Both the position numbers and the translations under genes were made by a program. Below the pieces are notes generated by a model that was not told the DNA's origin, ran no database searches, and saw only the letters and a list, made by a program, of their open reading frames with translations. Of a DNA stretch of 64,000 nt, positions 14,223 through 36,087 are shown piece after piece (position 1 is the stretch's first letter; every line of letters begins with the position of its first letter). The DNA comes from an uncultured Actinomycetes bacterium. Lineage in GTDB: Bacteria > Actinomycetota > Thermoleophilia > UBA2241. The stretch covers positions 96,001-160,000 of the forward strand of contig CAVYCN010000008.1 of the NCBI GenBank assembly GCA_963767005.1. The letters run 5' to 3'.

Positions 14223-14271
14223 ACGACGGAGGGGGCGGCGCCGGTAGGCGCCGCCCCCTCCGTCGTCGTTT
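14223..14271. terminator. 20-bp perfect hairpin, probable bidirectional terminator
   Basis: ACGACGGAGGGGGCGGCGCC-ggta-GGCGCCGCCCCCTCCGTCGT between convergent paaK and PBP genes. Confidence 0.75.
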
Positions 14272-16352: not shown

Positions 16353-16527
16353 AGGATGAGGCTATTGTAGCGGCTCGACGCGCTCCCGTCTCGTGAGCCG
16401 CCGGGCCTCGAGCGGCCCGCGCGGCCGTGCACTGCGATCCCTTGGACTCGCGCCGTCGCCGGTTCTTTCACCCGGCGTCGGGGCCGTGTCCGGCTAGAGA
16501 CCGCCGCCGGCGCCGTCACTGGTCGTC

Positions 16528-17316: not shown

Positions 17317-17324
17317 GCCGAGCG

Positions 17325-17963: not shown

Positions 17964-18192
17964 GCGAGGACCACCTCTGTGGAATGACAGGCCCGCTTGG
18001 ACCTCGTACAAAGAGTACGCACACCACATCGGAGCGTCAATCGTGGCCCCGGCGCGTCGGCGACGGGGGACGCCGGTAGCCGGGGGCGCCTTGTCCAGCA
18101 TGTCCAACAGGGCCCCGCCAGGCGGGCCGAGTCGTCAGAGAATCACCTGCAAATCGGGGAGAACACGGTCCGACGGAAAGGCCGTCGGCCGG

Positions 18193-18222: not shown

Positions 18223-18282
18223 CGCCTCGGCCACCGGCCCGGAAGCCGGGCCCTCCCGTCCACCGAGCGTCGACACCGGGGT

Positions 18283-18651
18283 ATGACGAGCGCATTCCTC
18301 ACGAGCTGGGCTTACGTCGCCGTGTTCATCGTGGCCGGCGCGGTCATGGTCGTCGGCATCCTGCTGATGTCGCGGCTCGTGTACCCGATCCACCCGTCGC
18401 CCGAGAAGTACTCCACGTACGAGTGCGGCATCGAGCCGGTCGGCGACTCGTGGCACCCCTTCGCCGTGCGCTACTACATCTTCGCCCTGCTGTTCCTGGT
18501 CTTCGACGTCGAGGCCATCTTCCTCTTCCCGTGGACGCTCTCGTTCCGGCGCTTCGGCACGACGGGCTTCGTCGAGGTCCTGCTGTTCATCGGCGTGCTC
18601 GCGGTCGGCCTGCTCTACGCCTGGCGCAAGGGAGCGCTCGAATGGGCGTGA
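18283..18651 (+). CDS. nuoA: NADH-quinone oxidoreductase subunit A
   Basis: [40 protein letters not shown]. Confidence 0.95.
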
Positions 18652-19352
18652 TCGACGACGCCGGCCTGCGCGGCTTCGTCGACCGGTTCCAGTACCCGAA
18701 CATCAGCCAGTTCGAGCGGCCCAACGTCATCACGACGACCGTCGACTTCATCTTCAGCTGGGCGCGCTCGCACTCGGTGTTCCCGTTCACCTACGGCCTC
18801 GCCTGCTGCGCGATCGAGATGCTCTCCTCGGGCTTCGCCCGCTTCGACGTCGCGCGGTACGGCATGGAGGTCTTCCGGCCCACGCCGCGCCAGTGCGACC
18901 TGATGATCGTGGCCGGCACCGTCAACGAGAAGATGGCGCCGGTGCTCAAGCGCCTCTACGAGCAGATGTCCGAGCCCAAGTGGGTGATCGCCATGGGCGC
19001 CTGCGCGACCAGCGGCGGCCCGTTCTACGACGGCTACAACGTCGTGAACGGCGTCGACAAGGTCGTGCCGGTCGACGTCTACATCCCGGGCTGCCCGCCG
19101 CGCCCCGAGGCGCTCTTCCAGGGTCTGCTCGAGCTGCAGAAGAAGATCCAGGCGATGCGCATCGTGCCGCCGGTGACCGGCGACGTCGCGGCGAGCGAGC
19201 GCGACGAGCGCGCCGCCGCGCAGCAGGCGGTCGCCGACCTCGACGGCAGCGCCGCCGAGGTCGGCGCGGCGCAGGTCGCCGCGCCCGACACCGAGCCGGC
19301 CGTGGCGTCCGCCGCGACCGCCCGAGCCGCCCGCGACGGGGACGAGGGCTAA
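18642..19352 (+). CDS. nuoB: NADH-quinone oxidoreductase subunit B
   Basis: [44 protein letters not shown]; acidic Ala-rich tail. Confidence 0.95.
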
Positions 19353-19354
19353 CC

Positions 19355-19849
19355 GTGCTGCCCGCCATCGGTGCGGCCGGCCTGTCCGTCGCCGACGTCG
19401 CCGCGCGTCTGACCGAGGCCTTCGGCGACGACCTCGCCGGGCCGCGCGTCCAGGGCGCCGGCACGGTCGTCGCCGGCGTCGACCGCGCCCGCCTGCACGA
19501 CGTCGCCGAGCGGCTGCGCGCGCTCGAGGGTCTCGCCTACGAGTCGTGCAACTTCATCGCCGCGGTCGACCACGGCGACCGCTACGAGACGGTCTACCAC
19601 CTCTACTCCTACGCCTCGAACACGTACCTCGAGCTGCACGTCGACGTGCCGCGCGGCAAGCCGGCGGTGGCCACCGTGTCCGACGTCTGGCCGGCGGCCG
19701 ACTGGCACGAGCGCGAGGCCTGGGACATGATGGGCATCCGCTTCGAGGGTCACCCCGACCTGCGCCGCATCCTGCTGGCCGACGGCTGGGTCGGCCACCC
19801 GCTGCGCAAGGACTACGTCGACTCGGTCGAGAACCACCCCCATGTCTGA
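19355..19849 (+). CDS. nuoC: NADH-quinone oxidoreductase subunit C
   Basis: ADWHEREAWDMMGIRFEGHPDLRRILL..WVGHPLRKDY; start GTG 19355 approximate. Confidence 0.93.
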   Translation: MLPAIGAAGLSVADVAARLTEAFGDDLAGPRVQGAGTVVAGVDRARLHDVAERLRALEGLAYESCNFIAAVDHGDRYETVYHLYSYASNTYLELHVDVPRGKPAVATVSDVWPAADWHEREAWDMMGIRFEGHPDLRRILLADGWVGHPLRKDYVDSVENHPHV

Positions 19850-21056
19850 CCAGTTCGCGACAGCCGTGCCCGACGAGGCCATGGCCCTGGCGCTGCGCCG
19901 TATCGCCGAGTCCGAGGCCGAGGGCCAGGGCAGCGACATGGCCGGCCTGGGCTTCAACCAGGTGGTCGTCAACATGGGGCCGCAGCACCCCTCGACCCAC
20001 GGTGTGCTGCGCCTGGTCGTCACGCTCGACGGCGAGCTCGTCAAGGACGTCATCCCCGTCGTCGGCTACCTGCACCGCAGCTTCGAGAAGATCGCCGAGA
20101 AGCGCACGTACTACCAGTACATCCCCTACCCGGCTCGCACCGAGTACCTGGCCGGCATCAACTGCGAGTGGGCCTACCTGCTCGCCGTCGAGCAGCTCGC
20201 CGGCATCACGCCCACGCGCCGCGCCGAGTTCGTCCGCGTGATCATGGCCGAGCTCAACCGCATCGCGAGCCACCAGGTGGGCGTCGGCACGTTCGTGGCC
20301 GACCTCGCGCCGCTCGGCACGGCGATGGTCTTCTACGCCTTCCGTCACCGCGAGCAGATCCTCGACCTGCTCGAGGCCGCGACCGGAGCGCGCATGATGT
20401 TCAACTACCTGCGCTTCGGCGGCGTGCGCGACGACCTGCCCGACGGCTGGATCGAGTCGTGCCGGGCGGCGATGCAGAAGGTGCCGGCCTGGTGCGACGA
20501 GTACGAGCGGCTCGTCAACGACAATGCCGTCTTCCTGCAGCGCTGCGTCGGCAAGGGCGTGATCACCCAGGACGACGTGGCCGACTACGCCATCACCGGC
20601 CCCAACGCGCGCGCCTCGGGCGTGGCCCACGACCTGCGCCGCACCCGGCCCTACTCGGTCTACCCCGAGCTCGACTTCGCGGTCTGCACGGCCGAGCACG
20701 GTGACGTGTACGACCGCTACCTGGTGCGGATCGACGAGATCCGCGAGTCGGCGAAGATCGTGCTGCAGTGCCTCGACATGCTGCCGGCCGGTCCCGTACG
20801 TCTGGGCACCCTCAGGCCGCCCTACGTCATCGCCCCGCCGCCGGGCGCCTGCTACGTCGGGCAAGAGAACCCGCGCGGCGAGTTCGGCACCTACGTCGTG
20901 AGCGACGGCTCGCGCTACCCGTACCGGCTCAAGTACCGCGACCCCTGTTTTGTGAACCTGCAGATCTTTCCCAAGCTGCTGCGCGGCAACAAGATCGCCG
21001 ACGCCGTCGCCATCTCGGGGAGCATGGACATGGTGCTCGGAGGGATCGACCGCTGA
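19842..21056 (+). CDS. nuoD: NADH-quinone oxidoreductase subunit D
   Basis: NMGPQHPSTHGVLRL, GYLHRSFEK, ENPRGEFG, DMVLGGIDR; no Ni-binding CxxC pairs. Confidence 0.95.
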   Translation: MSDQFATAVPDEAMALALRRIAESEAEGQGSDMAGLGFNQVVVNMGPQHPSTHGVLRLVVTLDGELVKDVIPVVGYLHRSFEKIAEKRTYYQYIPYPARTEYLAGINCEWAYLLAVEQLAGITPTRRAEFVRVIMAELNRIASHQVGVGTFVADLAPLGTAMVFYAFRHREQILDLLEAATGARMMFNYLRFGGVRDDLPDGWIESCRAAMQKVPAWCDEYERLVNDNAVFLQRCVGKGVITQDDVADYAITGPNARASGVAHDLRRTRPYSVYPELDFAVCTAEHGDVYDRYLVRIDEIRESAKIVLQCLDMLPAGPVRLGTLRPPYVIAPPPGACYVGQENPRGEFGTYVVSDGSRYPYRLKYRDPCFVNLQIFPKLLRGNKIADAVAISGSMDMVLGGIDR

Positions 21057-22171
21057 TGGACATCTTCCTCGCCATCGTGCGGTGCGTCGTCGCGGTGCTG
21101 ATCGCCTACGGCATCGTGTTCGCCGCGGCGCTCGTCAACATCCTCTTCGAGCGCCGCGCGCTCGCCTTTCTGCAGGACCGCCTGGGCCCCAACCGGACCG
21201 GCTGGCAGGGCAGCCTGCAGAGCGTCGCCGACGCCTTCAAGATGATGGGCAAAGAGGACTTCGCCCCGAGCGCCGCCGACAAGGCGATGTTCACGCTGGC
21301 GCCGATCATGGTCATGATCGGCGCCGTCGCGATCCAGGTCGTCGTGCCCTACACGAGCGGCTGGACCGACCAGAACCTGAACGTCGGCCTCATCTACATC
21401 GTCGCCATCACGAGCTTCACCGTGCTTGCGATCCTGCTCGGCGGCTGGGCCTCCCACAACAAGTACTCGCTGGTCGGCGCGCTGCGCTCGGGCGCCCAGA
21501 TGATCTCGTACGAGGTGCCGATGATCCTCGCGCTGCTCGTCGTCGCCATGGGCGCGGGCTCGCTCAGCCTGAACACGGTGGTCGCGGTCCAGCGCCACTA
21601 CGAGTGGTTCGCGTTCACCATGCCGTTCACGTTCCTGCTCTTCTTCATCGCCTCGATCGCCGAGCTCAACCGCGGCCCCTTCGACCTGCCCGAGTCCGAG
21701 TCCGAGCTCGTCGCCGGCTACGGCACCGAGTACTCCGGCATGCGCTTCGGCATGTTCTTCCTGAACGAGTATGCCGGCATGACGATCATGTCGATGGTCA
21801 CGGTCACGCTGTTCCTGGGCGGCTGGCAGGGGCCGCTGGCCGGCGCGCTCGTCGTGCACGGGGTGGCGATCGTGCCGATCCTCTGGTTCCTGATCAAGGT
21901 GTACGCGCTCGTGTTCGCGCTCATCTGGATCCGCCTGTCGGTGCCCCGCCTGCAGGTCGACCAGCTCATGGGCTTCGCCTGGAAGGTCCTCATCCCACTC
22001 GGCCTGGTCAACGTGCTCGCCACGGCGGCCGTCGCGCTCTGGGCGCCCCACTGGAAGCTCGCCATGGCGGCCTATAGCTGGATCGCCTTGATCGCCTTCG
22101 TCGGCCTGTTCGACGCGGTGCTGCGCTGGCGCCTGCGGCGCCAGCGTCGGCGCGTTACGGTGACCGCCTGA
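21056..22171 (+). CDS. nuoH: NADH-quinone oxidoreductase subunit H
   Basis: ERRALAFLQDRLGPNR, AQMISYEVP, AELNRGPFDLPESESELVAGYGTEYSG. Confidence 0.95.
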   Translation: MDIFLAIVRCVVAVLIAYGIVFAAALVNILFERRALAFLQDRLGPNRTGWQGSLQSVADAFKMMGKEDFAPSAADKAMFTLAPIMVMIGAVAIQVVVPYTSGWTDQNLNVGLIYIVAITSFTVLAILLGGWASHNKYSLVGALRSGAQMISYEVPMILALLVVAMGAGSLSLNTVVAVQRHYEWFAFTMPFTFLLFFIASIAELNRGPFDLPESESELVAGYGTEYSGMRFGMFFLNEYAGMTIMSMVTVTLFLGGWQGPLAGALVVHGVAIVPILWFLIKVYALVFALIWIRLSVPRLQVDQLMGFAWKVLIPLGLVNVLATAAVALWAPHWKLAMAAYSWIALIAFVGLFDAVLRWRLRRQRRRVTVTA

Positions 22172-22932
22172 TGCTCGGCATCCTCAAGGCCATGGGCACC
22201 ACGCTGGCGCACCTGCCGCAGCGCAAGATCACGGTGCAGTACCCCGAGGAGCGCGAGCAGCTGCCGGAGCGCAGCCGTGGCCTGTTCCAGGTGGTGACCG
22301 ACCCCGCCACCGGCGAGCCTGCCTGCCGCGCCTGCACGCTGTGCGAGACCAACTGCCCGGTGCAGGTCATCCGCGTGAACTACACCTCGACCCACGCCCT
22401 GCCGGCGGTCGACGACGCGCGCATCACGCGCGTGCGGGCAGCGGCGCAGCCCGTGCCCGACACGACGCTGATCGCGCCGGTGATCGACCAGTACCGCAAG
22501 ACCGGCCAGGGCCTCATGGGCGTCCTGCAGCACACCCAGGAGATCTACGGCTACCTGCCGCGCCTCGCCCTGCAGGAGATCGCGGTCGAGACCGGCGTCT
22601 CGCTGTCGCAGCTCTACGGCGTGGCGAGCTTCTACGACCAGTTCCGCCTGAACCCCGTGGGCCGCTTCGTCGTGACCGTCTGTCACGGCACCGCCTGCCA
22701 CGTCGCCGGCGCGCCGCTCATCACCGAGGCCTTCTCCGAGGAACTCGGCCTCGAGGTCGGCAAGACCAGCAAGGACCGCCTCTTCACCCTGCAGACCGTG
22801 AGCTGCGTCGGCGCCTGCGCCCTGGCCCCGGTAGTGCGCATCGGCGACGATGAGACTCACGGCCGCATGACGCCCGACAAGGCGCGCAGCCTGGTCGGCG
22901 AGCTGCGCCACCGCGCCGAGGTCGACCGATGA
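22171..22932 (+). CDS. fusion: N-terminal half of NuoI (one CxxCxxCxxxCP) + NuoE/HydC-like [2Fe-2S] subunit
   Basis: Residues 1-~70: ITVQYPEEREQLPERSRG...CRACTLCETNCP (NuoI N-half). Then QEIYGYLP, GVASFYDQF, CHGTACH and CVGACALAP (NuoE). Confidence 0.88.
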   Translation: MLGILKAMGTTLAHLPQRKITVQYPEEREQLPERSRGLFQVVTDPATGEPACRACTLCETNCPVQVIRVNYTSTHALPAVDDARITRVRAAAQPVPDTTLIAPVIDQYRKTGQGLMGVLQHTQEIYGYLPRLALQEIAVETGVSLSQLYGVASFYDQFRLNPVGRFVVTVCHGTACHVAGAPLITEAFSEELGLEVGKTSKDRLFTLQTVSCVGACALAPVVRIGDDETHGRMTPDKARSLVGELRHRAEVDR

Positions 22933-24845
22933 GCGTGGCGATCGATCGCGGCAGCCTGATCGAAGCCGCCCTCGCCCGCGCGCTGCACCCCGAGAGCATC
23001 ATCGCCCACGAGGGCGCCCGCGAGGTGCGCATCTGCGCCGGCACGGCCTGCCACGCGTCCGGCCGTCCGGCCGTCACCGCCGCCTTCCGCGAGCAGCTCG
23101 CCGACAAGGGCCTGGCCGACACGGTGCGGGTCGTCGAGACCGGCTGCCACGGCTTCTGCGAGCAGGGCCCGATCGTGCTGCTGCAGCCCCAGGGCCTGTT
23201 CTACTCGCGGGTGCGGGCGACCGATGTGGCCGGCATCATCACGGCCAGCATCGAGGCCGACGGCGTCTACGAGAAGCGCCTCTACAAGCACCCGGCGACC
23301 GGCGAGCCGGTGCCCCACGAGGAGGACATCCCGTTCTACGCCGGGCAGCGCCGTCTCGTGCTCAACTTGAACGGCCGCATCGACCCCTACTCGATCGACG
23401 ACTACCTCGCCCAGGACGGCTATCGCGCGCTGGCCGACGTGCTCGTGCGCGACGACCCGGTCGGCGTGATCGACGACATCGAGAACTCGGGGTTGCGCGG
23501 CCGCGGCGGCGCCGGCTTTCCGGCCGGCCGCAAGTGGCGCTCCTGCCGGGCCAACCCCGGCGACTGCAAGTACGTCATCTGCAACGGTGACGAGGGCGAC
23601 CCCGGCGCCTTCATGGACCGCTCGGTGCTCGAGGGCAACCCGCACTCGGTGGTCGAGGGCATGATCATCGCCGCCTATGCGATCGGCTCGGGCGTGGCGC
23701 CGGTGCACGGCTTCGTGTACGTGCGCGCCGAGTATCCGTTCGCCGTGCAGCGCCTCGACGCCGCCCTCGCCCAGGCGCGCGAGCGCGGCCTGCTCGGCGC
23801 GAACATCCTCGACTCGGGCTTCGACTTCGACATCCGCATCAACCAGGGCGCCGGCGCCTTCGTCTGCGGCGAGTCCACGGCGCTCACCGCGAGCATCGAG
23901 GGCCAGCGCGGCATGCCGCGCGGCAAGCACATCCGCACCGTCGCCCACGGCCTCTACGGCCAGCCGACCAACCTGAACAACGTCGAGACGTTCGCCAACG
24001 TGCCCTGGATCGTGTCGCACGGCGTCGACGCCTACCGCGCGATGGGCACCGAGACCTCGAAGGGCACCAAGATCTTCTCGCTCACCGGCAAGCTCCAGAA
24101 CGGCGGCCTCGTCGAGGTGCCGATGGGCGCCACGCTGCGCGAGGTCATCTTCGACGTGGGCGGCGGCATGCTGCCCGGCCGCGAGTTCAAGGCCGTGCAG
24201 CTCGGCGGCCCCTCGGGCGGCTGCCTGCCGGCCGACCTGCTCGACTCGCCCGTCGACTTCGAGAGCCTGCTGGCCGCCGGCTCGATGATGGGCTCGGGCG
24301 GCATGGTCGTGGTCGACGACTCGACCTGCATGGTCGACTTCGCCAAGTTCTTCCTGCAGTTCACCCAGGACGAGAGCTGCGGCAAGTGCGTGCCCTGCCG
24401 CCTGGGCACCAAGCGCATGCTCGAGACGCTCGTGCGCATCACCGAGGGCGAGGGCCGGCCCGACGACATCGAGCTCCTCGAGGAGCTGTCCGAGTACATC
24501 ATCGACGGCTCGCTGTGCGCCCTCGGCGGCAGCGCCCCCAACCCGGTGCTCAGCACGCTGCGCTACTTCCGCGACGAGTACGTCGCCCACGTCGAGGACC
24601 GGTGCTGCCCCGCCGGTCGCTGCAAGGCGCTCATCACCTACTACATCAGCGGCGACTGCACCGGCTGCGGGCTCTGCGCCAAGAAGTGCCCGACCCAGGC
24701 GATCACCGGCGAGCGCAAGCAGATGCACGTGATCGACACCGACCTCTGCATCAAGTGCGACACCTGCCGCCAGGTTTGCAACTTCAACGCCGTCCGGGTG
24801 CACTCGGGCTCGCAGGCCGGCGCGGCCGACGGAGGTGCGGCGTGA
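22929..24845 (+). CDS. nuoF: NuoF/HydB (BfuB)-type FMN/NADH-binding subunit with N-terminal [2Fe-2S] and C-terminal 2x[4Fe-4S] domains
   Basis: CAGTAC..TGCHGFCEQGP; SGLRGRGGAGFP; NGDEGDPGAFMDRS; GAGAFVCGE; GGPSGG; ESCGKCVPCR; HVEDRCCPAGRC; CTGCGLCAKKCP and CIKCDTCRQVC. Confidence 0.92.
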   Translation: MSVAIDRGSLIEAALARALHPESIIAHEGAREVRICAGTACHASGRPAVTAAFREQLADKGLADTVRVVETGCHGFCEQGPIVLLQPQGLFYSRVRATDVAGIITASIEADGVYEKRLYKHPATGEPVPHEEDIPFYAGQRRLVLNLNGRIDPYSIDDYLAQDGYRALADVLVRDDPVGVIDDIENSGLRGRGGAGFPAGRKWRSCRANPGDCKYVICNGDEGDPGAFMDRSVLEGNPHSVVEGMIIAAYAIGSGVAPVHGFVYVRAEYPFAVQRLDAALAQARERGLLGANILDSGFDFDIRINQGAGAFVCGESTALTASIEGQRGMPRGKHIRTVAHGLYGQPTNLNNVETFANVPWIVSHGVDAYRAMGTETSKGTKIFSLTGKLQNGGLVEVPMGATLREVIFDVGGGMLPGREFKAVQLGGPSGGCLPADLLDSPVDFESLLAAGSMMGSGGMVVVDDSTCMVDFAKFFLQFTQDESCGKCVPCRLGTKRMLETLVRITEGEGRPDDIELLEELSEYIIDGSLCALGGSAPNPVLSTLRYFRDEYVAHVEDRCCPAGRCKALITYYISGDCTGCGLCAKKCPTQAITGERKQMHVIDTDLCIKCDTCRQVCNFNAVRVHSGSQAGAADGGAA

Positions 24846-27286
24846 GCGCGCAGCCTCGCGACGCCGCTAAGGCGGCCGCGCCGGCCTCCCGCCCGGTGGC
24901 CGCCGTGCCGCAGATGACGCTCACGGTCGACGGGCACGAGGTGACGTGCGACCGCGGCGAGACCATCCTGCAGGCCGCCGAGCGGGCCGGGGTGCGCATC
25001 CCGACGCTGTGCTACGAGTCGCGTCTGCCGGCCTCGGCCGCCTGCCGCCTGTGCATGGTCGAGGTCGAGGGCTGGGGCAAGCCGGTGTCGAGCTGCTCGA
25101 CCTACGCCGCCGACGGCATCGTCGTGCACACCGACACCGAGAAGGTGCGCAAGATGCGGCGGCTCTATCTCGAGCTGCTGCTGTCCGACCACAGCTCGTT
25201 CTGCACGCCGCCCTGCGCCGACGCCTGCCCGACGGGGATCAAGATCCCGCAGTTCCTCGACGCCGTCGCACGGGGCGACTACGCCGCCGGCGTGCGCAAG
25301 CTGCGCGAGGACCTGCCGTTCCCGGCGATCCTCGGGCGCGTCTGCCCGCGGCCCTGCGAGGAGCCCTGCCGACGCCGTCTCGTCGACGAGCCCATCACGA
25401 TCTGCTCGCTGCACCGCTTCATGGCCGACCAGTGCCTCGACGACGAGCAGACCGGCGAGCTGCTCCTGCCCTACGAGCCGCGGCCCGACAGCGGCAAGCG
25501 TGTCGCCGTCGTTGGCGCCGGGCCGGCCGGCCTGGCCTGCGCGTTCTACGCCCGCCTCGACGGCCACCAGGTGACGATCTTCGAGGCCGAGTCGCGGCCC
25601 GGCGGCATGCTGCGCTACGGCATCCCCAGCTTCCGCCTGCCGCGCGAGGTGCTCGACAAGGAGCTCAACGTGCTCTGGCGCCTGGGCGTCGAGCTCGAGT
25701 GCGGCAAGCGCCTCGGCGCCGACCTGCGGCTCGACGACCTGACGGCGTCCTACGACGCCGTGTTCCTCGGCTTGGGCGCGCTGCACACCCCGGCGCTCGC
25801 CGTCGCCGGCGCCGAAGCGGCCGGCGTGACCGACGCGCTCGAGCTGCTGGCCGGCCTCGAGCGCGGCGACGACGTGACGGTCGGCGGCACGGTGGCCGTC
25901 GTCGGCGACGGCTTCGCCGCCGCCGAGGCCTGCCGCGTGGCGCGCCGCAAGGGCGCGACCGACGTCACCTGGCTCGCGCCGGGCGCGCGGGCCGACATGG
26001 CGACGCCGGCGGCCGAGATCGCCGCGGCACTCGACGAGGGCGTGCGGCTCGAAGAGGCCGTGGCGCCGATCGCCCTGCAGACCGGCGCCGGCGGCGCGCC
26101 GACCGGCATCGAGCTGCGTCGCGACGGCGGCGCCACGTTCGTGCTGGCCTGCGACCAGGTCGTGAACGCCGGCGCCCACGTGCCGCAACTCGACGGCACA
26201 AGCGAAGCGCAAGGCGTGGGCCGCACGGCGGCCGGCACCGTCCGCGTGAACGACGACACCCTGCAGACCGACGATCCGCGCATCTTCGCCGGCGGCGACG
26301 CCGTGCTGGGCGCGCGCACGGCGGTCGAGGCGGTCGCCCAGGGCAAGCGCGCCGCCTGGAGCATCGACGCGTTCCTGCGCGGCCACGACATGGCGGCCGT
26401 CGCGCGCGAGCTCGCCGAGGTGCGGGCGACGGCCTTCCCGGCCGCGCTCGCGGCGCGCAAGCGGCTCGACCCGGCCGTCGCCCGCCTGGCGGACGTCAAG
26501 CCGGTGTTCATCGACATGACGGTCGACGTCTCGCACCCGGCGCCGCGGCCGCGCATGCCCGAGCTGCCGGCGGCCGAGCGCGTGACCGGCTTCGCCGAGG
26601 TCGAGCTCGGCCTGACCGAGGAGCAGGCGCGCGAGGGCGCGGCCCTGTGCCTCGACTGCCACTGCCCGGCCAACGGCGAGTGCGAGCTGCAGAGCCTCGG
26701 CATCGAGTACGAAGTCTTCGAGAACCGCTTCCACGGGCAGGCGACCCACGACTACCCGGCCGACCTGCGCCACGACTTCATCATGCGCGAGCCCAACCGC
26801 TGCATCATGTGCCTGCGCTGCGTGCGCGTCTGCCGCATGGAGGTCGGGGCGAGCTGCTACGATGCCATGGGGCGCGGCTGGGACACGATCGTCTCGACGC
26901 CCGACAACCTGCCGCTGCAGACGGTCGGCTGCATCTCGTGCGGCAAGTGCGCCGAGACCTGCCCGACCGGCTCCATCGAGATCGACCGGCGCGTGCTGCG
27001 CAGCTACGATTTAGACGAGAGCCGCTGCATCTTCTGCGGCGAGTGCGTCGAGGTGTGTCCCTACGACGCGCTCGAGCAGACCGCCTTCTTCGAGCTCGCC
27101 GGCTACAGCCGCACGAAGCTCGCCGGCGAGTCGCTGTTCGTGCGCGTCCCGCAGAAGACCGACGGGCCGCGCCCCATCGTGGCCGACGTCGAGCCCCATG
27201 TGCGCGACGCGGTCGAGGGCAGAGGCTGGCAGTGGGCGCCGCTCAAGGGCGACGGCGACCTCGACGAGATCGAGCGTGACCTCTGA
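24842..27286 (+). CDS. fusion: NuoG-like Fe-S domains with inserted GltD/NfnB-like FAD oxidoreductase + C-terminal half of NuoI
   Basis: IPTLC..ACRLCMVE..SC ([2Fe-2S]); DH..CTPPCADACP, GRVCPRPCEEPCRR, GAGPAG, GGMLRYGIP, FAGGD (GltD); CLDCHC..CELQ; CIMCLRCVRVC; CISCGKCAETCP; then YDLDESRCIFCGECVEVCPYDALEQTAFFELAGYSR (NuoI C-half). Confidence 0.88.
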   Translation: MSAQPRDAAKAAAPASRPVAAVPQMTLTVDGHEVTCDRGETILQAAERAGVRIPTLCYESRLPASAACRLCMVEVEGWGKPVSSCSTYAADGIVVHTDTEKVRKMRRLYLELLLSDHSSFCTPPCADACPTGIKIPQFLDAVARGDYAAGVRKLREDLPFPAILGRVCPRPCEEPCRRRLVDEPITICSLHRFMADQCLDDEQTGELLLPYEPRPDSGKRVAVVGAGPAGLACAFYARLDGHQVTIFEAESRPGGMLRYGIPSFRLPREVLDKELNVLWRLGVELECGKRLGADLRLDDLTASYDAVFLGLGALHTPALAVAGAEAAGVTDALELLAGLERGDDVTVGGTVAVVGDGFAAAEACRVARRKGATDVTWLAPGARADMATPAAEIAAALDEGVRLEEAVAPIALQTGAGGAPTGIELRRDGGATFVLACDQVVNAGAHVPQLDGTSEAQGVGRTAAGTVRVNDDTLQTDDPRIFAGGDAVLGARTAVEAVAQGKRAAWSIDAFLRGHDMAAVARELAEVRATAFPAALAARKRLDPAVARLADVKPVFIDMTVDVSHPAPRPRMPELPAAERVTGFAEVELGLTEEQAREGAALCLDCHCPANGECELQSLGIEYEVFENRFHGQATHDYPADLRHDFIMREPNRCIMCLRCVRVCRMEVGASCYDAMGRGWDTIVSTPDNLPLQTVGCISCGKCAETCPTGSIEIDRRVLRSYDLDESRCIFCGECVEVCPYDALEQTAFFELAGYSRTKLAGESLFVRVPQKTDGPRPIVADVEPHVRDAVEGRGWQWAPLKGDGDLDEIERDL

Positions 27287-27789
27287 TGCCGCAGGGCGAC
27301 TTCCATCCCATCCTGTTCGTGATCGTCGCCGTCTGGGTGCTGGGCTGCGGCATCGCCGTGGTCGCCCTGCGCAACATCGTGCACTCGGCGATGGCGATGG
27401 TGGCCTGCTTCCTGGGCGTGGCGGCGGCCTACGTGCTGCTCGACGCCGGCCTGCTCGCCGTCATCCAGATCCTGATCTACGTGGGCGCCATCTCGGTCGT
27501 CGTGCTGTTCGCCATCATGCTGACCGAGCAGCAGCGCACCGGTCGCGGCTTCTACTTCAACCGCCAGTCGATCGTCGCCCTGCCGCTTGCCGTCGCGACC
27601 TTCGTCGTGCTCACCGTCGTGCTCGTGACCTCGAAGATGCCGCTCAGCGGCAGCCACGCGCACAATGTCTCGCTGACCGGCATCGCAAACGGCCTCTTCA
27701 GCGCCTACGTCTTTCCGTTCGAGCTCGTCTCGATCGTCCTGCTGTCGGCCATGGTCGGCGCCATCGTGCTGGCCCGCAAGGAGGACTAG
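27286..27789 (+). CDS. nuoJ: NADH-quinone oxidoreductase subunit J
   Basis: NIVHSA, QILIYVGAISVVVLFAIML, PFELVSIVLLSAMVGAIVL. Confidence 0.93.
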   Translation: MPQGDFHPILFVIVAVWVLGCGIAVVALRNIVHSAMAMVACFLGVAAAYVLLDAGLLAVIQILIYVGAISVVVLFAIMLTEQQRTGRGFYFNRQSIVALPLAVATFVVLTVVLVTSKMPLSGSHAHNVSLTGIANGLFSAYVFPFELVSIVLLSAMVGAIVLARKED

Positions 27790-27854
27790 CCGTGCCACGC
27801 AGTCACACCTGGCTGAGCCACAACAACGCAAGCCCATTGGGGGACTAGCAGGCC

Positions 27855-28163
27855 GTGAGCCCCGTCGACTGGTATCTGACCCTCGCCTCCGGCCTCTTCT
27901 GCATCGGCGCCTACGGCGTGCTCGCGCGGCGCAACGTCGTGCTCATCGTGATGAGCCTCGAGCTCATGCTGAACGCCGTGAACCTCGCCCTCGCCGCCTT
28001 CGCCGACTTCATGCCGGGGGCCGCCGGTCGCGGCACCTTCTTCGTGCTGTTCATCATCACCCTGGCGGCCGCCGAAGTGACGGTCGGCCTGGCGATCATC
28101 GTCGCCAACTACCGCAACCGCCGGTCGGTGCAGGCCGACGAGTTCAGCGAGATGAAGGGCTAG
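27855..28163 (+). CDS. nuoK: NADH-quinone oxidoreductase subunit K
   Basis: RRNVVLIVMSLELMLNAVNL, AAAEVTVGLAII. Confidence 0.95.
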   Translation: MSPVDWYLTLASGLFCIGAYGVLARRNVVLIVMSLELMLNAVNLALAAFADFMPGAAGRGTFFVLFIITLAAAEVTVGLAIIVANYRNRRSVQADEFSEMKG

Positions 28164-28173
28164 GGGGCCCGCC

Positions 28174-30069
28174 GTGCACGTCGCCATCGCCCTGATCCCG
28201 GCCCTGCCGCTCGCCGGCTTCGTGATCACGCTGCTGCTCGGCCGCAACGCGCTGGCCCGGCGGCCCGAGGTCGCGTCGCTCGCCGCCGTCACCGGCTCGT
28301 GGGTGCTCAGCATGGTCGTCGTGGCGCACGTCTTCGGCCACCACACGCAGACGATCGACGTGCACCTGTTCAGCTGGGTCTCGGCCGGCTCGTTTCAGGT
28401 GCAGTGGGGCTACTACGTCGATGCGCTCGCCGCCGTCATGCTCATCGTGGTCAGCACGATCGGCATGCTCGTGCACTACTACTCGATCGGCTACATGCGC
28501 GGCGACGGTGGCTACTACCGATTCTTCGCCTACCTCAACCTCTTCATGTTCGCCATGTTCACCCTCGTGCTGGCCGACAACTACCTGCTCATGTTCCTGG
28601 GCTGGGAGGGCGTGGGCCTCTGCTCGTACCTGCTGATCTCGTTCTGGTTCCACAAGAAGAGCGCCTCGCAGGCCGGCAAGAAGGCCTTCCTCGTCAACCG
28701 CGTGGGCGACTGGGGCTTCACCCTGGGCGTGTTCCTCATGTTCGTGACGTTCGGCACCCTGCAGTTCTCGCAGGTCTTCGCCCACGCGGCCCACGTGAGC
28801 CCGGGTCTCGTCACCTGGATCAGCCTGCTGCTCTTCGTCGGCGCGGTCGGCAAGAGCGCCCAGTTCCCGCTGCACGTCTGGCTGCCCGACGCGATGGAGG
28901 GCCCGACCCCGGTCAGCGCCCTGATCCACGCCGCCACGATGGTGAACGCCGGCGTCTACATGATCGCCCGCAGCTACCCGCTCGTGAGCCACTCGCACAC
29001 CGCCATGCTCGTCGTCATGGGGGTGGGCTGCTTCACGGCGATCTACGCCGCCTGTATCGCGCTCACCCAGAACGACATCAAGAAGGTGATCGCCTACTCC
29101 ACGATCTCGTCGCTCGGCTTCATGTTCATGGCGCTCGGCGCGGGCGCCTGGGTGGCAGGCATCTTCTACCTGTTCGCCCACGGCTTCTTCAAGGGCCTGC
29201 TCTTCCTGGGCTCGGGCTCGGTGATCCACGCCATGTCGGGCGAGCAGGACATGCGTCACATGGGCGGCCTGCGCAAGAAGCTGCCGCTCACCTTCTGGAC
29301 GATGATGGTCGGCGCCCTCGCCAACGTCGGTCTGTTCCCGTTCGCCGGCTTCTGGGCCAAGGACGAGATCCTGGGCGGCGCCTTCTCGGGCCACTACTAC
29401 GTGGTCTGGCTGGTGGGTCTGGTCACCGCCTTCGTGACGGCGGTGTTCATGTTCCGCCTCATGTTCCTGACCTTCTGGGGCGAGAACCGCGCCGACGCCG
29501 AGGTGCAGCATCACATCCACGAGTCGTCGGCCGTGATGACCGTGCCGCTCGTCATCCTTGCCGTGCCGGCCGCGGTGCTCGGCCTGGTGATCGGCCTGCC
29601 GCCCGGCGGCGGCTGGCTGCACACCTTCCTGCACCCGGTCTTCTTCAGAGTCGAGAGCGAGCACTTCGCCTGGGCCGGCACCGGTGGCGCCCTCATGCTC
29701 CTGTCGCTCGTCGTGGTCGTGCTCGGCATCGGCACGTCGTGGCAGGCCTACCTGCGGCGCCCCGAGCTGCCCGCGCGAGTCGCCGCTCGCGTGCCCTGGG
29801 CCTACCAGGCGTCGCTGCACAAGTTCTATATGGACGAGATCTACGACGCCGGTGTGGTGCGTCCGGTCATGGGCTTCGCCTCGTGGCTGTGGACGTTCGT
29901 CGACGTCAAGGTGGTCGACGGCGCCGTCAACGGCATCGCCGCCGTCTGGGCCGCCTTCGGGCGCGCCCTGCGGCCGCTGCAGACCGGCCGCGCCCAGAGC
30001 TACGCGTTCGGCGTCTTCGGCGGCCTGTTCGTGCTCGTCATCATCGTCCGCTACGTCTGGAGGGCCTGA
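28174..30069 (+). CDS. nuoL: NADH-quinone oxidoreductase subunit L
   Basis: GWEGVGLCSYLLI, KAFLVNRVGD, GKSAQFPLHVWLPDAMEGPTPVSALIHAATMV, DIKKVIAYST. Confidence 0.96.
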   Translation: MHVAIALIPALPLAGFVITLLLGRNALARRPEVASLAAVTGSWVLSMVVVAHVFGHHTQTIDVHLFSWVSAGSFQVQWGYYVDALAAVMLIVVSTIGMLVHYYSIGYMRGDGGYYRFFAYLNLFMFAMFTLVLADNYLLMFLGWEGVGLCSYLLISFWFHKKSASQAGKKAFLVNRVGDWGFTLGVFLMFVTFGTLQFSQVFAHAAHVSPGLVTWISLLLFVGAVGKSAQFPLHVWLPDAMEGPTPVSALIHAATMVNAGVYMIARSYPLVSHSHTAMLVVMGVGCFTAIYAACIALTQNDIKKVIAYSTISSLGFMFMALGAGAWVAGIFYLFAHGFFKGLLFLGSGSVIHAMSGEQDMRHMGGLRKKLPLTFWTMMVGALANVGLFPFAGFWAKDEILGGAFSGHYYVVWLVGLVTAFVTAVFMFRLMFLTFWGENRADAEVQHHIHESSAVMTVPLVILAVPAAVLGLVIGLPPGGGWLHTFLHPVFFRVESEHFAWAGTGGALMLLSLVVVVLGIGTSWQAYLRRPELPARVAARVPWAYQASLHKFYMDEIYDAGVVRPVMGFASWLWTFVDVKVVDGAVNGIAAVWAAFGRALRPLQTGRAQSYAFGVFGGLFVLVIIVRYVWRA

Positions 30070-30071
30070 CC

Positions 30072-31661
30072 GTGGGCTGGCATCAGCAGGCGGGCTTTCC
30101 CATCCTCTCGGTCATCACGTACCTGCCGCTCGTCGGCGTCGTGATCATCGCCCTGTTCGGCAGGGGCCGGCCGACCTTCTACAAGGTCGTCAGCCTGGTC
30201 GTCACGCTGGCCGCCTTCGCGCTGTCGATCGTGCTGCTGCTCCGCCTCCACGCGAACCGGCCCGGCATGCAGTTCGTCGAGAACGTCGTCTGGATCAAGC
30301 GCTTCAACATCCACTACGGCTTCGGCATCGACGGCATCTCGGCGCTGTTCATCTTCCTGACCACGCTGCTCGGCTTCATCGTGATCATCGCGAGCTGGCA
30401 CTACGTCAAGGACCGCGAGCGCGGCTTCTTCGCGACGCTGCTGCTCCTCCAGGTCGGCATGACCGGCGTGTTCTGCGCGACCGACATCTTCCTGTTCTAC
30501 GTGTTCTGGGAGGCCATGCTGATCCCGATGTTCTTCATCATCGGGATCTGGGGCGGTCCCCGGAAGATCTACGCCGCCGTCAAGTTCTTCCTGTTCACGC
30601 TGGTCGGCAGCGTGCTCATGCTGGTCGCCATCATCGCCCTGGTCTGGTACGCGCGCGGCAACTCGCCGGTCGGGCTGACGTTCGACATCCAGCAGCTCTC
30701 GCACCTGATCCTGCCCTACGACCTGCAGCTCTGGGCCTTCGCCGCCTTCTTCGTCGCCTTCGCCATCAAGGTGCCGATGTGGCCGCTCCACACCTGGCTG
30801 CCCGACGCCCACGTCGAGGCCCCGACGGCGGGCTCCGTGATCCTCGCCGGCGTCCTGCTGAAGATGGGCGGCTACGGCATGCTGCGCTTCTGCCTGCCGA
30901 TCTTCCCCGACGCCGCGGTCGCCTTCATCCCGCTCGTCGTCGCCCTGTCGATCGTGGCCATCATCTACGGCGCCCTGGTGTCGATGCAGCAGAAGGACTT
31001 GAAGAAGCTCGTCGCCTACTCGAGCGTCAGCCACATGGGCTTCGTCACGCTCGGCATCTTCGTGTCGGTGGCCGTGCTCGGCAACGCCCAGGGCATGGTG
31101 GGCGCGATCCTCGTCATGTTCAGCCACGGCCTGCTCACGGGCGCCCTGTTCCTGCTGGTCGGCTTCCTCTACGAGCGCACGCACACGCGTGAGATCGCCG
31201 CGATGGCCCGTCTGGCCACGCCGCTGCCGGTGCTGGCCGGCTTCTTCCTGTTCTTCACGCTCGGCTCGCTCGGCCTGCCCGGCCTGTCGGGCTTCGTGGG
31301 CGAGTTCCTGAGCCTGCTCGGCCTGTTCCACTACTCGCACTGGATGGCGGCCGTCGCCGCCCTCGGCGTGATCCTGGCGGCCTGCTACCTGCTCTGGATG
31401 TTCCAGCGCGTCATGTTCAACGACCGCGGCGACGAGGCGGTCAAGCCGGCCTTCGCCCTGTCCGACTTCGGTGCGCGCGAGATCGCGTCGCTGCTGCCGC
31501 TCGTCGTGCTCGCCGTGTGGGTGGGCGTCTACCCCAACACCTTCATCAATCTCGTCCACCTGCCGGTCCAGCAGATCGTCGATCGCGTCGTGCCGTCCCT
31601 CGCCCAGGCCCACGGCGGGACACTCGCCGACCTCGGTCGTTTCGCACGGGGGCTGCTCTAG
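30072..31661 (+). CDS. nuoM: NADH-quinone oxidoreductase subunit M
   Basis: FYVFWEAMLIPM, AIKVPMWPLHTWLPDAHVEAPT, KKLVAYSSVSHMG, LPGLSGFVGEF. Confidence 0.96.
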   Translation: MGWHQQAGFPILSVITYLPLVGVVIIALFGRGRPTFYKVVSLVVTLAAFALSIVLLLRLHANRPGMQFVENVVWIKRFNIHYGFGIDGISALFIFLTTLLGFIVIIASWHYVKDRERGFFATLLLLQVGMTGVFCATDIFLFYVFWEAMLIPMFFIIGIWGGPRKIYAAVKFFLFTLVGSVLMLVAIIALVWYARGNSPVGLTFDIQQLSHLILPYDLQLWAFAAFFVAFAIKVPMWPLHTWLPDAHVEAPTAGSVILAGVLLKMGGYGMLRFCLPIFPDAAVAFIPLVVALSIVAIIYGALVSMQQKDLKKLVAYSSVSHMGFVTLGIFVSVAVLGNAQGMVGAILVMFSHGLLTGALFLLVGFLYERTHTREIAAMARLATPLPVLAGFFLFFTLGSLGLPGLSGFVGEFLSLLGLFHYSHWMAAVAALGVILAACYLLWMFQRVMFNDRGDEAVKPAFALSDFGAREIASLLPLVVLAVWVGVYPNTFINLVHLPVQQIVDRVVPSLAQAHGGTLADLGRFARGLL

Positions 31662-33185
31662 ATGAACAACTCGGTCTTCATCGTGCTGCCCACCGTCGTC
31701 ATCCTCGCGACCGCGGTGGTCGTGCTGCTCGCCGACCTCGTCTTCGAGCGGCGCCCCAAGGTCCTCGGCTGGCTGTCCGCCGGCGGCCTCGTCGTGGCCG
31801 CCTCGGTGGCGATCGGCCAGTGGGCGACCTGGTCGGGTGGCGACGCGCTCTGGCGCGTCTTCACCGGCGGCCTCGGGTTCGGCGCCCGGCAGGGCAGATA
31901 CGGCTTCAACGGCATGGTCCGGCTCGACCAGTACGGGCTCTTCTTCACGGTGCTGTTCTGCGCGATCGGCGTGCTCACCGTCCTGCTGTCCGACGGCTAC
32001 CTTGCCCAGCATCGCATCAAGGCGGGCGAGTTCTACCTGCTGCTGCTGCTCGCCTTGAGCGGCATGGTCTGCATGGCGATCTCGACCGACCTCATCGCCC
32101 TGCTCGTGTCGTTCGAGCTCATGTCGTTGCCGAGCTACGTGCTGGCCGGCGTGCTGCGCCGCGACCGCAAGTCGGGCGAGGCGGCCATCAAGTACTTCGT
32201 GAACGGCGCCTTCGCGTCGGCCGTCCTCGCCTTCGGCCTCGCCCTCGTCTACGGCGCGACCGGGGCCACGGGCTACGGCTCCATCCAGCGCTCACTCGCC
32301 GCCGGCGACCCGCGCAACGCGATGCTGCTCGTCGCCCTCGTGCTGGTGGCGACCGGCTTCGGCTTCAAGATCGCAGCGGTGCCGTTCCACGGCTGGGCGC
32401 CCGACGTCTACGAAGGCGCCCCGACGCCGGTCACCGCCTTCATGTCGGTCGGCATCAAGGCCGGCGCCTTCGCCGGCTTCCTGCGTATCGTCGCTCTGGC
32501 GCTCATCCCGGCCTCGCAGGGCTGGTCCGACGTGCTGATCATCCTGGCCGTGCTGACCATGGTCGTCGGCAACGTGCTCGCCCTGCCGCAGCGCAACCTC
32601 AAGCGGCTGCTCGCCTACTCGAGCATCGCGCACGCCGGCTACCTGCTCCTCGGCCTGGTCGCCCTGGGCCGCAGCCACGACACGACCGGCGCCGGCGCGG
32701 TCCTGTTCTACCTGGCCGCCTACACGTTCATGAACCTCGGCGCGTTCGGCGTGCTCGTGCTCATCCGCAACCGCCGGGCCTTTGCCTACACGCTCGACGA
32801 GCTCGCCGGCATGGGTCGCAGCATGCCGCTCACCGCCTTCGCCATGACGCTCTTCATGCTGTCGCTGACCGGCATCCCGCCGCTCGCCGGCTTCTGGGGC
32901 AAGTTCTACCTGTTCACGGCCGTGATCGACGCGCACCTCACCTGGCTCGCGGTCGTCGCCGTCGTGATGAGCGCGGTGTCGGCGTTCTACTACCTGCGGA
33001 TCGTCTGGTACCTGTACTTCCGCGAGGCCGAGCCGGCCGCCGAGGAGCCCGAGCTGCTGGCCGCCGACGGCGGCATCGCCAGCGCGACGGCCGTCGCGGT
33101 GCTCGGCGTGCTCGCGGTGGGCGTGTACCCGTCGCCGGTCATCGCCGCGGCGCAGGGAGCCGTGCGCCTCATCTTCAAGGCCTGA
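31662..33185 (+). CDS. nuoN: NADH-quinone oxidoreductase subunit N
   Basis: EAAIKYF, FKIAAVPFHGWAPDVYEGAPTP, KRLLAYSSIAHAGY, GIPPLAGFWGK. Confidence 0.96.
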   Translation: MNNSVFIVLPTVVILATAVVVLLADLVFERRPKVLGWLSAGGLVVAASVAIGQWATWSGGDALWRVFTGGLGFGARQGRYGFNGMVRLDQYGLFFTVLFCAIGVLTVLLSDGYLAQHRIKAGEFYLLLLLALSGMVCMAISTDLIALLVSFELMSLPSYVLAGVLRRDRKSGEAAIKYFVNGAFASAVLAFGLALVYGATGATGYGSIQRSLAAGDPRNAMLLVALVLVATGFGFKIAAVPFHGWAPDVYEGAPTPVTAFMSVGIKAGAFAGFLRIVALALIPASQGWSDVLIILAVLTMVVGNVLALPQRNLKRLLAYSSIAHAGYLLLGLVALGRSHDTTGAGAVLFYLAAYTFMNLGAFGVLVLIRNRRAFAYTLDELAGMGRSMPLTAFAMTLFMLSLTGIPPLAGFWGKFYLFTAVIDAHLTWLAVVAVVMSAVSAFYYLRIVWYLYFREAEPAAEEPELLAADGGIASATAVAVLGVLAVGVYPSPVIAAAQGAVRLIFKA

Positions 33186-34195: not shown

Positions 34196-34269
34196 GCGGC
34201 CGCCGCCGGCCATCCAGGGCACGCCGGGACCCGGTCCCGGCGCAGGCGCGAGCGCGGCGTCGCGGGGCG

Positions 34270-34298
34270 CTCAAGTGATGGCGGGGACCCACCGATGA
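34270..34298 (+). promoter_or_regulatory. sigma28-type promoter
   Basis: cTCAA-N16-ACCGATGA upstream of the priming sugar transferase. Confidence 0.6.
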
Positions 34299-34408
34299 AC
34301 GGGGCAGGCGGGCAGCCCGGGACGGCGACGAGCGACCTGGTCAAACAGTCGTCGCCCACCGAAGCCATGGGTAGCCTTGCTCGAGACGGCCGCATCAGGG
34401 GCAGCTCG

Positions 34409-35956: not shown

Positions 35957-36087
35957 CGCGGAGAGACCCCCTTCCCCAGCTCCTCCGCCTCGTATAGGCT
36001 TGGCGTCGTCGGCGCGGCCGTCGACGACCCGGGCTCGTCCTTTTGCGGACGCGAAGCCGCGGGCCGGGCGGCCGGACGCGCGAGTGG

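Follow-up and report, generated by a model that had tools for sequence, protein, structure and literature searches.

A complex I operon with a divided NuoI, an eroded NAD(P) domain in subunit G, and a por-type nucleotide pocket in subunit F, suggesting a shift of NADPH entry between flavins

INTRODUCTION

Complex I is the textbook NADH enzyme, and to our knowledge NADPH-using forms exist only as mutants and as the plastid and cyanobacterial complexes that are fed through ferredoxin. Among the closest described systems, Nuo-Bfu has been presented as a 14-subunit, NADH-using enzyme of Proteobacteria, Deferribacteres, Planctomycetes, and Nitrospirae, predicted to reduce menaquinone by confurcation of NADH and ferredoxin (Schut et al. 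2022, PMC9304861); in the available main text of that paper, neither "NuoI" nor "Actinobacteria" is matched. Here we analyze a complex I (nuo) operon from an uncultured bacterium of the Thermoleophilia, located on 64,000 nucleotides of GenBank assembly GCA_963767005.1 (contig CAVYCN010000008.1, positions 96,001 to 160,000, forward strand), referred to below as the window. BfuABC-type genes are situated inside this nuoA-N operon. The largest of them, subunit G, contains an inserted flavin adenine dinucleotide (FAD) module whose NAD(P) domain is eroded, and its neighbor, subunit F, which has the flavin mononucleotide (FMN) site, carries a nucleotide-binding segment resembling that of a paralogous por operon. 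On balance we think it likely, from sequence comparisons, that NADPH entry has moved from the FAD to the FMN, that the FAD port has become redundant or vestigial, and that the enzyme would act as an NADPH- plus ferredoxin-dependent, menaquinone-reducing proton pump.

RESULTS

Erosion of the NAD(P) site in subunit G

Subunit G consists, in order, of a [2Fe-2S] domain, a split His/Cys3 motif with a GltD insert, a 2[4Fe-4S] domain, and a C-terminal half of NuoI (Table 1). An initial annotation, made from the letters and open reading frames (ORFs) alone, had described a GltD-like FAD domain inserted in a NuoG-like subunit, and Pfam, alignment, and fold matches bear this out. Translation of the frame at 24842-27286 placed every motif where it had been reported (LSDH, 25181-25192; GAGPAG, 25514-25531; GDG, 25904-25912; WLAPGAR, 25970-25990; FAGGD, 26285-26299; CLDCHC..C, 26648-26683), and a Pfam search of G likewise found no H-cluster, NiFe, or molybdopterin domain after the NuoG part. 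The best solved relatives by sequence are C. saccharolyticus NfnA (9bov_A, E value of 1.6e-143), S. ovata StnC (8oh5_C, 2.6e-129), and T. sibiricus NfnA (9n5u_A), and Foldseek returned the same top relatives by fold. The substitutions seen in the window were not found in these characterized NADPH users, all three of which have GGGNTA and YRR at the aligned places. In the window, Asp356 stands for Gly, Ala359 for Thr, APG for YRR (25976-25984), and AGAH for AIGQ (26168-26179), and a 16-residue GEPD..GRRRP loop is deleted (26120-26125). The erosion of the second Rossmann fold noted initially thus stands as regards GDG and the missing YRR, but the Phe of GDGFAA, also counted as a change, is present in 107/108 YRR-bearing relatives and is no erosion; the loss of Thr359, of the loop, and of AIGQ makes the damage wider than had been seen. 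A sequencing error or pseudogene is ruled out: the frame is open over 814 amino acids and translationally coupled on both sides, and three database proteins (87 to 89% identity) have the same GDG, a W-L-[AS]-P loop, and the loop deletion. We regard the erosion as virtually certain to be real.

The remainder of the protein is well kept. All iron-sulfur (Fe-S) ligands, FAD residues, and ligands of clusters A6 and A7 are invariant in 12/12 GDG-type sequences, and the equivalent of StnC Arg239, described as required for activity (PMC10482914), is retained as Arg265. The ligand of the FAD-proximal cluster (25403-25414) is His191 in G and His in 160/161 rows of the alignment, with an extra conserved Cys three residues before it; the aligned residue of StnC is Lys170, and the ligand is Lys in StnC and NfnA and Glu in NfnB. 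A single-chain model of G still folded the NAD(P) domain, at a predicted local distance difference test score (pLDDT) of 76 to 94 from an input alignment dominated by intact relatives, and was uninformative on the C-terminal tail (pLDDT below 50 for residues 605 to 774).

Docking on complex I had been proposed as the cause of the loss, and this did not hold up. Among 119 G homologs with a NuoI tail (the window's own fragment, P0091, excluded from motif counts), 109 read GGG with YRR, nine read GDG without YRR, and one reads GGG without YRR; the intact pair is also found in the congeneric nuo operons L005 and L007. The proposed descent from a module of the Stn/Nfn-ABC type agrees with the sequence and fold matches. 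The closest relatives found, however, are formate dehydrogenase alpha subunits, in the same family, that contain GltD: when the NAD(P) domain is left out of the tree, they form the sister group of the nuo G clade, and 12/12 of them have YRR. Several of these formate dehydrogenase subunits (L025, L071-L080; GltD insert and YRR intact) show a stop after DHCART beyond which the reading frame resumes, the pattern expected for selenocysteine.

Scaled to the remainder of the protein, the NAD(P) domain evolved at a rate of 3.39 in the 12 GDG nuo rows and 1.13 in 31 YRR nuo rows; the 12 por rows gave 2.08 and the 6 formate dehydrogenase rows 0.56, and the corresponding nuo values for the FAD domain were 1.39 and 1.18. 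The median ratio of NAD(P)-domain nonsynonymous divergence (dN) to gene-wide synonymous divergence (dS) was 0.80 for 7 GDG pairs and 0.20 for 12 YRR pairs, compared with 0.37 and 0.175 for the FAD domain and 0.18 and 0.10 for the Fe-S domains; dS is compressed by high GC content, which inflates all of these ratios, and the pairs share sequences. Every position fixed in 108/108 YRR rows (N317, T359, Y379-S382, E385, P387, D394, the GRRRP loop, G445, and W464) is altered or variable in the 12 GDG rows, and the loop in place of YRR is different in every sub-lineage. With good confidence, these comparisons point to relaxed selection on the NAD(P) domain, and the motif alignments and dN/dS together uphold the initial suggestion that the window's copy of G has lost its NADP site.

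Asp356 requires at least three changes on the G tree, in the window sub-clade, in genome G051, and in the por paralogs. A single origin was rejected by the approximately unbiased (AU) test (P values of 0.025 and 0.030 with the window group held with G051 or with por). The 12 GDG rows form one clade, with a support of only 39. Transfer of the eroded domain itself from the por paralog is unsupported, as the GDG nuo rows keep the nuo-type residues F358, C364, and C437-D438-Q439.

Loss of YRR can accompany a change of substrate. In the GltD/NfnB-like domain of DsrL-1, as opposed to DsrL-2, absence of YRR is described as removing the NADP(H) preference, with S/T-x-x replacements and NAD(H) use (PMC7596348), and in the GDG rows the place of the Tyr is taken by Cys, Ser, or Ala. 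The FAD site of G might similarly have been re-specified to NAD(H), the ports being swapped (NADH at FAD, NADPH at FMN) and Asp356 excluding the 2'-phosphate or binding ribose. The invariant FAD and A6/A7 residues and the predicted Rossmann fold agree with such a use, and two observations tell against pure decay: 12/12 GDG nuo rows share Asp356, Ala359, and an acid at 362, which decay leaves unexplained, and Asp356 is conserved once it arises, as in 22/24 por rows. Gly to Asp is a single transition, however, and Asp is well tolerated in glycine loop positions or as a helix cap, so that convergence on Asp356 need not indicate a new substrate. Contacts away from the 2'-phosphate have been lost as well (Thr359, Gly445-Gln446, the GRRRP loop, and Trp464), the replacement loop is not shared between sub-lineages, dN/dS approaches 1, no acid stands at the end of strand beta-B, and in genome G011 the domain has been replaced by a ferredoxin. 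A re-specified FAD site is on this evidence improbable.

The initial annotation had proposed that the module may be left as a second flavin entry point for an unspecified substrate, and a non-nucleotide partner (a small carrier, an F420-like cofactor, polysulfide, or oxygen) could take that part, given that the FAD and cluster ligands are retained while the lid domain opens and that erosion recurs in the por paralog. Apart from the alpha-B helix, the 12 GDG rows showed no new conserved surface, the operons examined contained no extra conserved gene, and in G051 even Arg265 and Cys188 of G are lost. Relaxed selection, the want of a fixed replacement loop, and a congener with the domain exchanged for a ferredoxin further disfavor this possibility, which we rate as very improbable.

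That congener is represented by locus L032 (G011:C5, 9355-13627), where the NAD(P) domain of G is replaced by a copy of the C-terminal 2[4Fe-4S] ferredoxin of F (55% identity), F itself is degenerate, and the nuo genes and the two halves of NuoI have stayed well conserved; it is a candidate ferredoxin-only complex I. One could extend this to the window and suppose that the whole input module is being lost, with the membrane arm acting as an 11-subunit-like complex fed by ferredoxin through a rebuilt NuoI. In G011 the F motifs (35% identity) and the NAD(P) domain of G are gone while the nuo genes remain 80 to 97% identical, and F is degenerate at further loci. In the window, by contrast, all F signatures and Fe-S ligands are intact, F is 86 to 88% identical among GDG congeners, and the Fe-S domains keep the low dN/dS given above, so that wholesale loss is hardly credible here.

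A por-type nucleotide pocket in subunit F

Subunit F, where the likely explanation lies, was outside the view of the initial annotation. It comprises an N-terminal [2Fe-2S] domain, the FMN site, cluster B1, and a C-terminal 2[4Fe-4S] domain; the BfuB signatures (AFM, Phe, and GGPSG) and the cysteines of B1, B3/B4, and the N-terminal [2Fe-2S] cluster were all found, as was the [2Fe-2S] cluster of BfuC. In the window F, CGESTAL and KHIRT take the place of the CGEETAL and RPP[YF]P of YRR-type operons. The NAD(H)-selective Glu and aromatic residue of BfuB are thus replaced by Ser316 and Arg336, which align with Ser320 and Arg340 of T. kivui HydB (8a6t), with Glu286 of T. sibiricus NfnB, and with Glu274 and Phe294 of C. 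saccharolyticus NfnB. Mutants of E. coli NuoF altered at this Glu (Glu183) reportedly use more NADPH. The T. kivui enzyme is described as reducing NADP+ and not NAD+ (PMC8578170), and its Arg340 contacts NADP+ according to a figure legend in PMC10021017, the available text of which names only Arg340, the role of Ser320 at the ribose-binding Glu position being read from the alignment. Glu286 is stated to secure selectivity for NADH over NADPH (PMC12018979), and Glu274 and Phe294 are NAD pocket residues, with numbering taken from the alignment (PMC11829005).

The two positions go together in more distant relatives. Among 129 scorable of 150 distant BfuB/NuoF representatives (21 had no readable motif), an acid at 316 is accompanied by an aromatic residue at 336 in 92/102, and in the 27 with a nonacid residue the aromatic is never found (Arg or Lys in 11, His in 12). 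This nonacid subtype (Ser, Ala, or Gly with Arg or His) is widespread in the distant set, P0364-P0513. A search of plasmids for Ser/Arg-type F gave distant matches only. A suspicion that F is degenerate in the YRR lineages proved wrong, as their F motifs are intact and merely of the Glu type. From the pocket residues, F of the window probably prefers NADP(H).

The same genome contains a por operon (G000:C16, about 54300-62500) of the order porC-porD-porA-[NuoI(N)-like-E]-F-[G-GltD-NuoI(C)-like-PorB]. Its cassette, fused to PorB, has GDG, lacks YRR, and carries a Ser/Arg F, and would therefore be NADP-linked. Residues 190 to 345 of the window F nest among the por sequences (support of 100/99), and congener monophyly was rejected for this segment by the AU test (P value of 6e-26). 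Residues 25 to 180 group with congeners (93), and residues 461 to 625 nest with Glu-type congeners (100/99), away from por (100/100). The DNA gives the same picture: over residues 301 to 345, F shares 91% identity with the por F of its own genome and 67% with congeneric nuo F, whereas at its ends the values are 70 to 72% and 84 to 89%, respectively. In G051 the nuo and por F genes are 99 to 100% identical over residues 301 to 460 and 70 to 77% identical at the ends. A tree on residues 350 to 630 speaks less clearly, having put the window with por (95), and only the narrower tree on residues 461 to 625 put it with congeners; because the wider tree still pulls F toward por, the tract likely runs past residue 345, and its edges, which are approximate, probably extend toward residue 460. 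Frameshifted or degenerate F rows were excluded from the first trees, on residues 25 to 180 and 350 to 630 (L014, L016, L032, L052, L053, L069, L085, and L086), and in the later trees, on residues 190 to 345 and 461 to 625, L166 formed a very long branch that is not interpretable. It is very likely, from trees and DNA identity, that the F segment derives from por. The NuoI-like halves of the por cassette suggest in turn that it was first taken from a nuo operon, on trees that are unrooted. Por-type cassettes also occur in records titled Bryobacteraceae (L166) and Deltaproteobacteria (L230), which may reflect transfer or mis-binning.

Co-occurring states of the two pockets

Both sites were readable at 168 distinct loci, of which 97 were nuo and 70 were por; loci without either site and duplicates were left out, and L030, a formate dehydrogenase locus, was left out of the nuo count. 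Glu-type F occurs with YRR at 80 nuo loci and without it at none, Ser/Arg F with YRR at one and without it at nine, and degenerate F with YRR at five and without it at two. YRR is found at none of the 70 por loci and Ser/Arg F at 68, most of these loci having been found by a pattern for that F motif; por loci found through G, blind to F, had Ser/Arg F in 21/23 and lacked YRR in 23/23. Ser/Arg F also characterizes a further nuo group (L012, L145, L212, and L084), which is united with support of 99/98 on the tree of the F C terminus and whose G states are graded from intact YRR through YWS and YWR to full erosion. The series fits a change of the F pocket first and decay of G later; the G tree, however, puts L012 apart.

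Several observations weigh against an NADP-linked F beside a G domain that decays for want of use. The co-occurrence reduces to three independent tree pairs, too few to reach significance (two in the same direction, none opposite, and one without difference; sign test P value of 0.5), and an independent test of family-wide covariation of the two F positions, under-powered with only three starred pairs, was not significant. Ser/Arg F stands beside an intact YRR at L012, Glu F beside an eroded G at the por locus L061, and a lost YRR beside a degenerate F at L006 and L117. The FAD domain of G is itself partly relaxed, as its dN/dS indicates. The NADP preference of the Ser/Arg pocket rests on a single characterized enzyme. 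WorB of A. mobile (9mqx_B), in which Ser aligns with the Glu and His with the Arg, is described as NAD reducing and was solved with NADH (PMC12318220), and the flank of the window pocket, GKHIRT, is closer to VKYIHA of WorB than to VRPPRT of T. kivui.

F might accordingly use NAD(H), or both nucleotides as in WorB, the NADPH port on G being simply lost and the enzyme pumping with NADH and ferredoxin onto menaquinone as predicted for Nuo-Bfu. The WorB-like combination of Ser with His is the commonest nonacid pocket among the distant representatives (11/27), and for balancing NADPH the genome can draw on PntB and an NfnAB-like pair. An NAD(H)-using F would leave unexplained why YRR is lost at 0/80 Glu-type and 9/10 Ser/Arg nuo loci, and why exactly the por-type segment was imported repeatedly; the window F, moreover, has Arg, the NADP+-contacting residue of T. 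kivui HydB. We judge this alternative unlikely and retain NADPH entry at the FMN as the preferred reading.

A NuoI divided between two subunits

The initial annotation did not include the NuoI half that follows the last NuoG-type ferredoxin of G. Together with the half fused to E, it covers the NuoI profile, with eight cysteines in total. The C-half was present in 119/119 G homologs, a single CxxCxxCxxxCP motif in 119/120 E-fusion homologs, and both halves at 24/25 mapped nuo loci, the remaining locus being cut by a contig end. NuoI is split in a second family of the same class too, with NuoI(N) fused to a reduced E-F, and the N-half was matched at 1e-12 in 8/301 genomes of a phylum sample, two distant ones of which were inspected. 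In family f6 (L027 and L028), a single 602-residue ORF joins NuoI(N) to what is left of E and to a shortened F; it has altered signatures and no BfuB ferredoxin domains, and the partner G keeps YRR. This is a candidate nonbifurcating, NADPH-fed form. In StnC, the cluster branch corresponding to the one that ends here in NuoI is described as nonfunctional (PMC10482914), and in the window this dead end may become an exit to quinone. In the open-access literature searched, no description of a split NuoI or of a cofactor-pocket swap was found.

Operon and genome setting

The operon has 13 ORFs, and with NuoABCD, H, and J-N all present, the quinone module and membrane arm are complete. Around the E-F-G module, each of the four gene junctions has overlapping start and stop codons. 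Matches to G with an E value of 1e-150 or better, paralogs included, occur in 79/89 genomes of the source family, and named relatives are mostly metagenome-assembled genomes of Thermoleophilia or Actinomycetota. The source genome, 100% complete by markers, has matches to the MqnA, PntB, and NiFe hydrogenase families and an NfnAB-like pair; family matching gave no match to RnfD or CdhC. The MqnA-family match and the lack of an RnfD match were counted in favor of a menaquinone-linked pump. Among the sequencing runs listed by a search, none of RNA contained the sequence, and the best share was 0.23.

TABLE 1 Features of the nuo operon in the window
Feature	Position	Strand	Basis
Complex I (nuo) operon, nuoA-B-C-D-H-[NuoI(N)-E]-F-[G-GltD-NuoI(C)]-J-K-L-M-N	~18265..33185	+	Translations, profile matches
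nuoA, B, C, D, H	18265..22171 (nuoA start approximate)	+	Translations, profile matches
NuoI N-half (one CxxCxxCxxxCP), fused to E (first 72 residues)	22171..22386	+	TIGR01971 positions 2-62 of 121; TYKY matches
NuoE/BfuC/StnA domain of the NuoI(N)-E fusion (ORF 22171-22932)	22456..22932	+	Pfam; structure matches
Subunit F (BfuB/HydB type), 638 aa	22929..24845	+	Pfam, alignments, signature motifs
F nucleotide-binding segment, por-operon type, aa 190-345	23496..23963	+	Trees, alignments, DNA identity
F Ser316	23874-23876	+	Replaces Glu of NAD enzymes
F Arg336	23934-23936	+	Replaces Phe/Tyr of NAD enzymes
Subunit G (BfuA/StnC-like), 814 aa	24842..27286	+	Sequence, Pfam, fold and profile matches
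NuoG/HydA-type [2Fe-2S] domain of G, aa 25-99	24914..25138	+	Pfam Fer2_4; Cys invariant in 12/12 GDG-type relatives
GltD-type two-cluster domain (A6/A7) of G	25202..25441	+	Pfam Fer4_20; alignment
FAD domain of G, part 1 (GAGPAG, Glu248, Arg265 = StnC Arg239), intact	25484..25780	+	Alignment
Eroded NAD(P) Rossmann domain of G, aa 314-450	25781..26191	+	Alignments; motif counts
FAD domain of G, part 2 (FAGGD, Thr493), intact	26195..26386	+	Alignments
His/Cys3 motif second half and 2[4Fe-4S] domain (A2/A4) of G	26648..26974	+	Pfam; alignment
NuoI C-half (one CxxCxxCxxxCP), fused to G, aa ~716-771	26987..27154	+	TIGR01971 positions 71-115 of 121; NuoI/TYKY chain matches
nuoJ, K, L, M, N	27286..33185	+	Read from translations; synteny

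A second, canonical nuo operon with an intact NuoI and a fused NuoCD lies outside the window (G000:C8, 39700-56450), immediately downstream of genes that resemble those of cytochrome oxidase. In the NuoF of this operon, Ala (GEASAM) stands in place of the ribose-binding Glu, so that the protein may accept NADPH too. Within the window, the region at 12749-18027, divergent from the nuo operon, contains an AMP-binding gene (phenylacetate-CoA ligase-like, labeled by reading the sequence), a class A penicillin-binding protein gene, tatC, and a long TatA/B gene with an Ala/Pro tail. At 33422-41371 there follow genes for a YmdB phosphoesterase, a sugar transferase, tRNA-Cys (36088-36161), an epimerase, a beta-helix protein, and a FemAB-like protein, which form the beginning of a polysaccharide cluster.

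DISCUSSION

Proposed mechanism

The gene order places a three-gene module of the Nfn-Bfu type within nuoI, with the two halves of NuoI fused to E and G. The halves would rebuild the N6a/N6b domain, and electrons would then pass from the FMN and BfuBC core through A1, A2, and A4 to N6a/N6b, N2, and quinone; with the GltD insert capping the N5-type cluster, another cluster would have to provide the exit toward N6a. The majority form, with YRR at the FAD and Glu and Phe/Tyr at the FMN, appears to have two nucleotide ports and is likely a four-way hub taking NADPH at the FAD, NADH and ferredoxin at the BfuBC core, and quinone via NuoI. In at least two nuo lineages, trees and DNA identity indicate replacement of the F nucleotide segment by the por type, and Ser316 and Arg336 would shift the preference of the FMN site to NADP(H). 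With both ports on NADP(H), the FAD port would be redundant, because the transhydrogenase reaction is left without driving force and because NADPH cannot usefully serve as both mid-potential donor and high-potential partner. The NAD(P) domain, under the relaxed selection seen above, could then drift, with the FAD and cluster ligands kept, probably for folding. In the resulting enzyme, NADPH (about -370 mV) and reduced ferredoxin would be confurcated onto menaquinone (-74 mV).

Viewed more widely, the family may be a series of input ports: NADH plus NADPH, NADPH at the FMN only, NADPH at the FAD with a stripped F, and ferredoxin only. We advance this series only tentatively when it is taken jointly with a natural NADPH- plus ferredoxin-confurcating pump working through a split NuoI, repeated por gene conversion, and an NADP-linked Por-Bfu. 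The family supplies natural matched pairs that differ in the two pockets, which make accessible the choice between NAD and NADP in BfuB, confurcation by Nuo-Bfu, and the loss of a port in a two-flavin module. A sequence rule of Glu/aromatic versus Ser with Arg or His could revise the predicted cofactor of many Bfu enzymes, Por-Bfu included, and the locus offers a worked example of paralog gene conversion re-routing a respiratory enzyme.

Comparison with known systems

Of the described systems, Nfn-Bfu is characterized and Nuo-Bfu and Por-Bfu are predicted, and the window module falls outside the definitions of Nfn-Bfu and of Nuo-Bfu as described. With Nfn-Bfu/StnABC (8oh5, 9bov, and 9n5u) it shares the three-subunit E/F/G layout, the GltD domain within the His/Cys3 motif, the FAD site with the Arg239 equivalent, and the BfuB signatures. 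Those enzymes are soluble, without a membrane arm; they retain YRR and Lys at A7, end in an FdhF-like domain, and have an NAD pocket of the Glu/Phe-Tyr type, whereas the window has lost YRR and has His at A7, a NuoI half in place of the FdhF domain, a Ser/Arg pocket, and a nuo operon around it. The NADP(H) site of BfuA (GGGxTA and YRR) is absent from the window G and present in 109/119 relatives. Predicted Nuo-Bfu (PMC9304861, in the text available) shares the placement of BfuABC genes midway through a complex I operon; the window differs in having 13 ORFs, a split NuoI and no stand-alone one, a BfuA that contains a GltD insert, and a pocket predicted to take NADP(H). The NADP-specific bifurcating hydrogenase HydABC of T. 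kivui has the matching BfuB pocket, with a third substrate of its own, H2 at the H-cluster, and a different flank. DsrL-1, compared by its published description, is an active NAD(H) enzyme, and the G of the window, by contrast, has lost many further contacts under relaxed selection. Por-Bfu (predicted; PMC9304861, in the text available) and the por operon of the family share a cassette with NuoI-like halves, GDG, no YRR, and a Ser/Arg F; in the family por operon, from which the F segment likely came, the cassette is fused to PorB and has no membrane-arm docking. Canonical complex I, finally, shares NuoABCD, H, and J-N and, through the two halves, the NuoI profile, and it differs from the window enzyme in its undivided NuoI and its compact, NADH-specific NuoEFG, in place of which the window has a large BfuB-type F.

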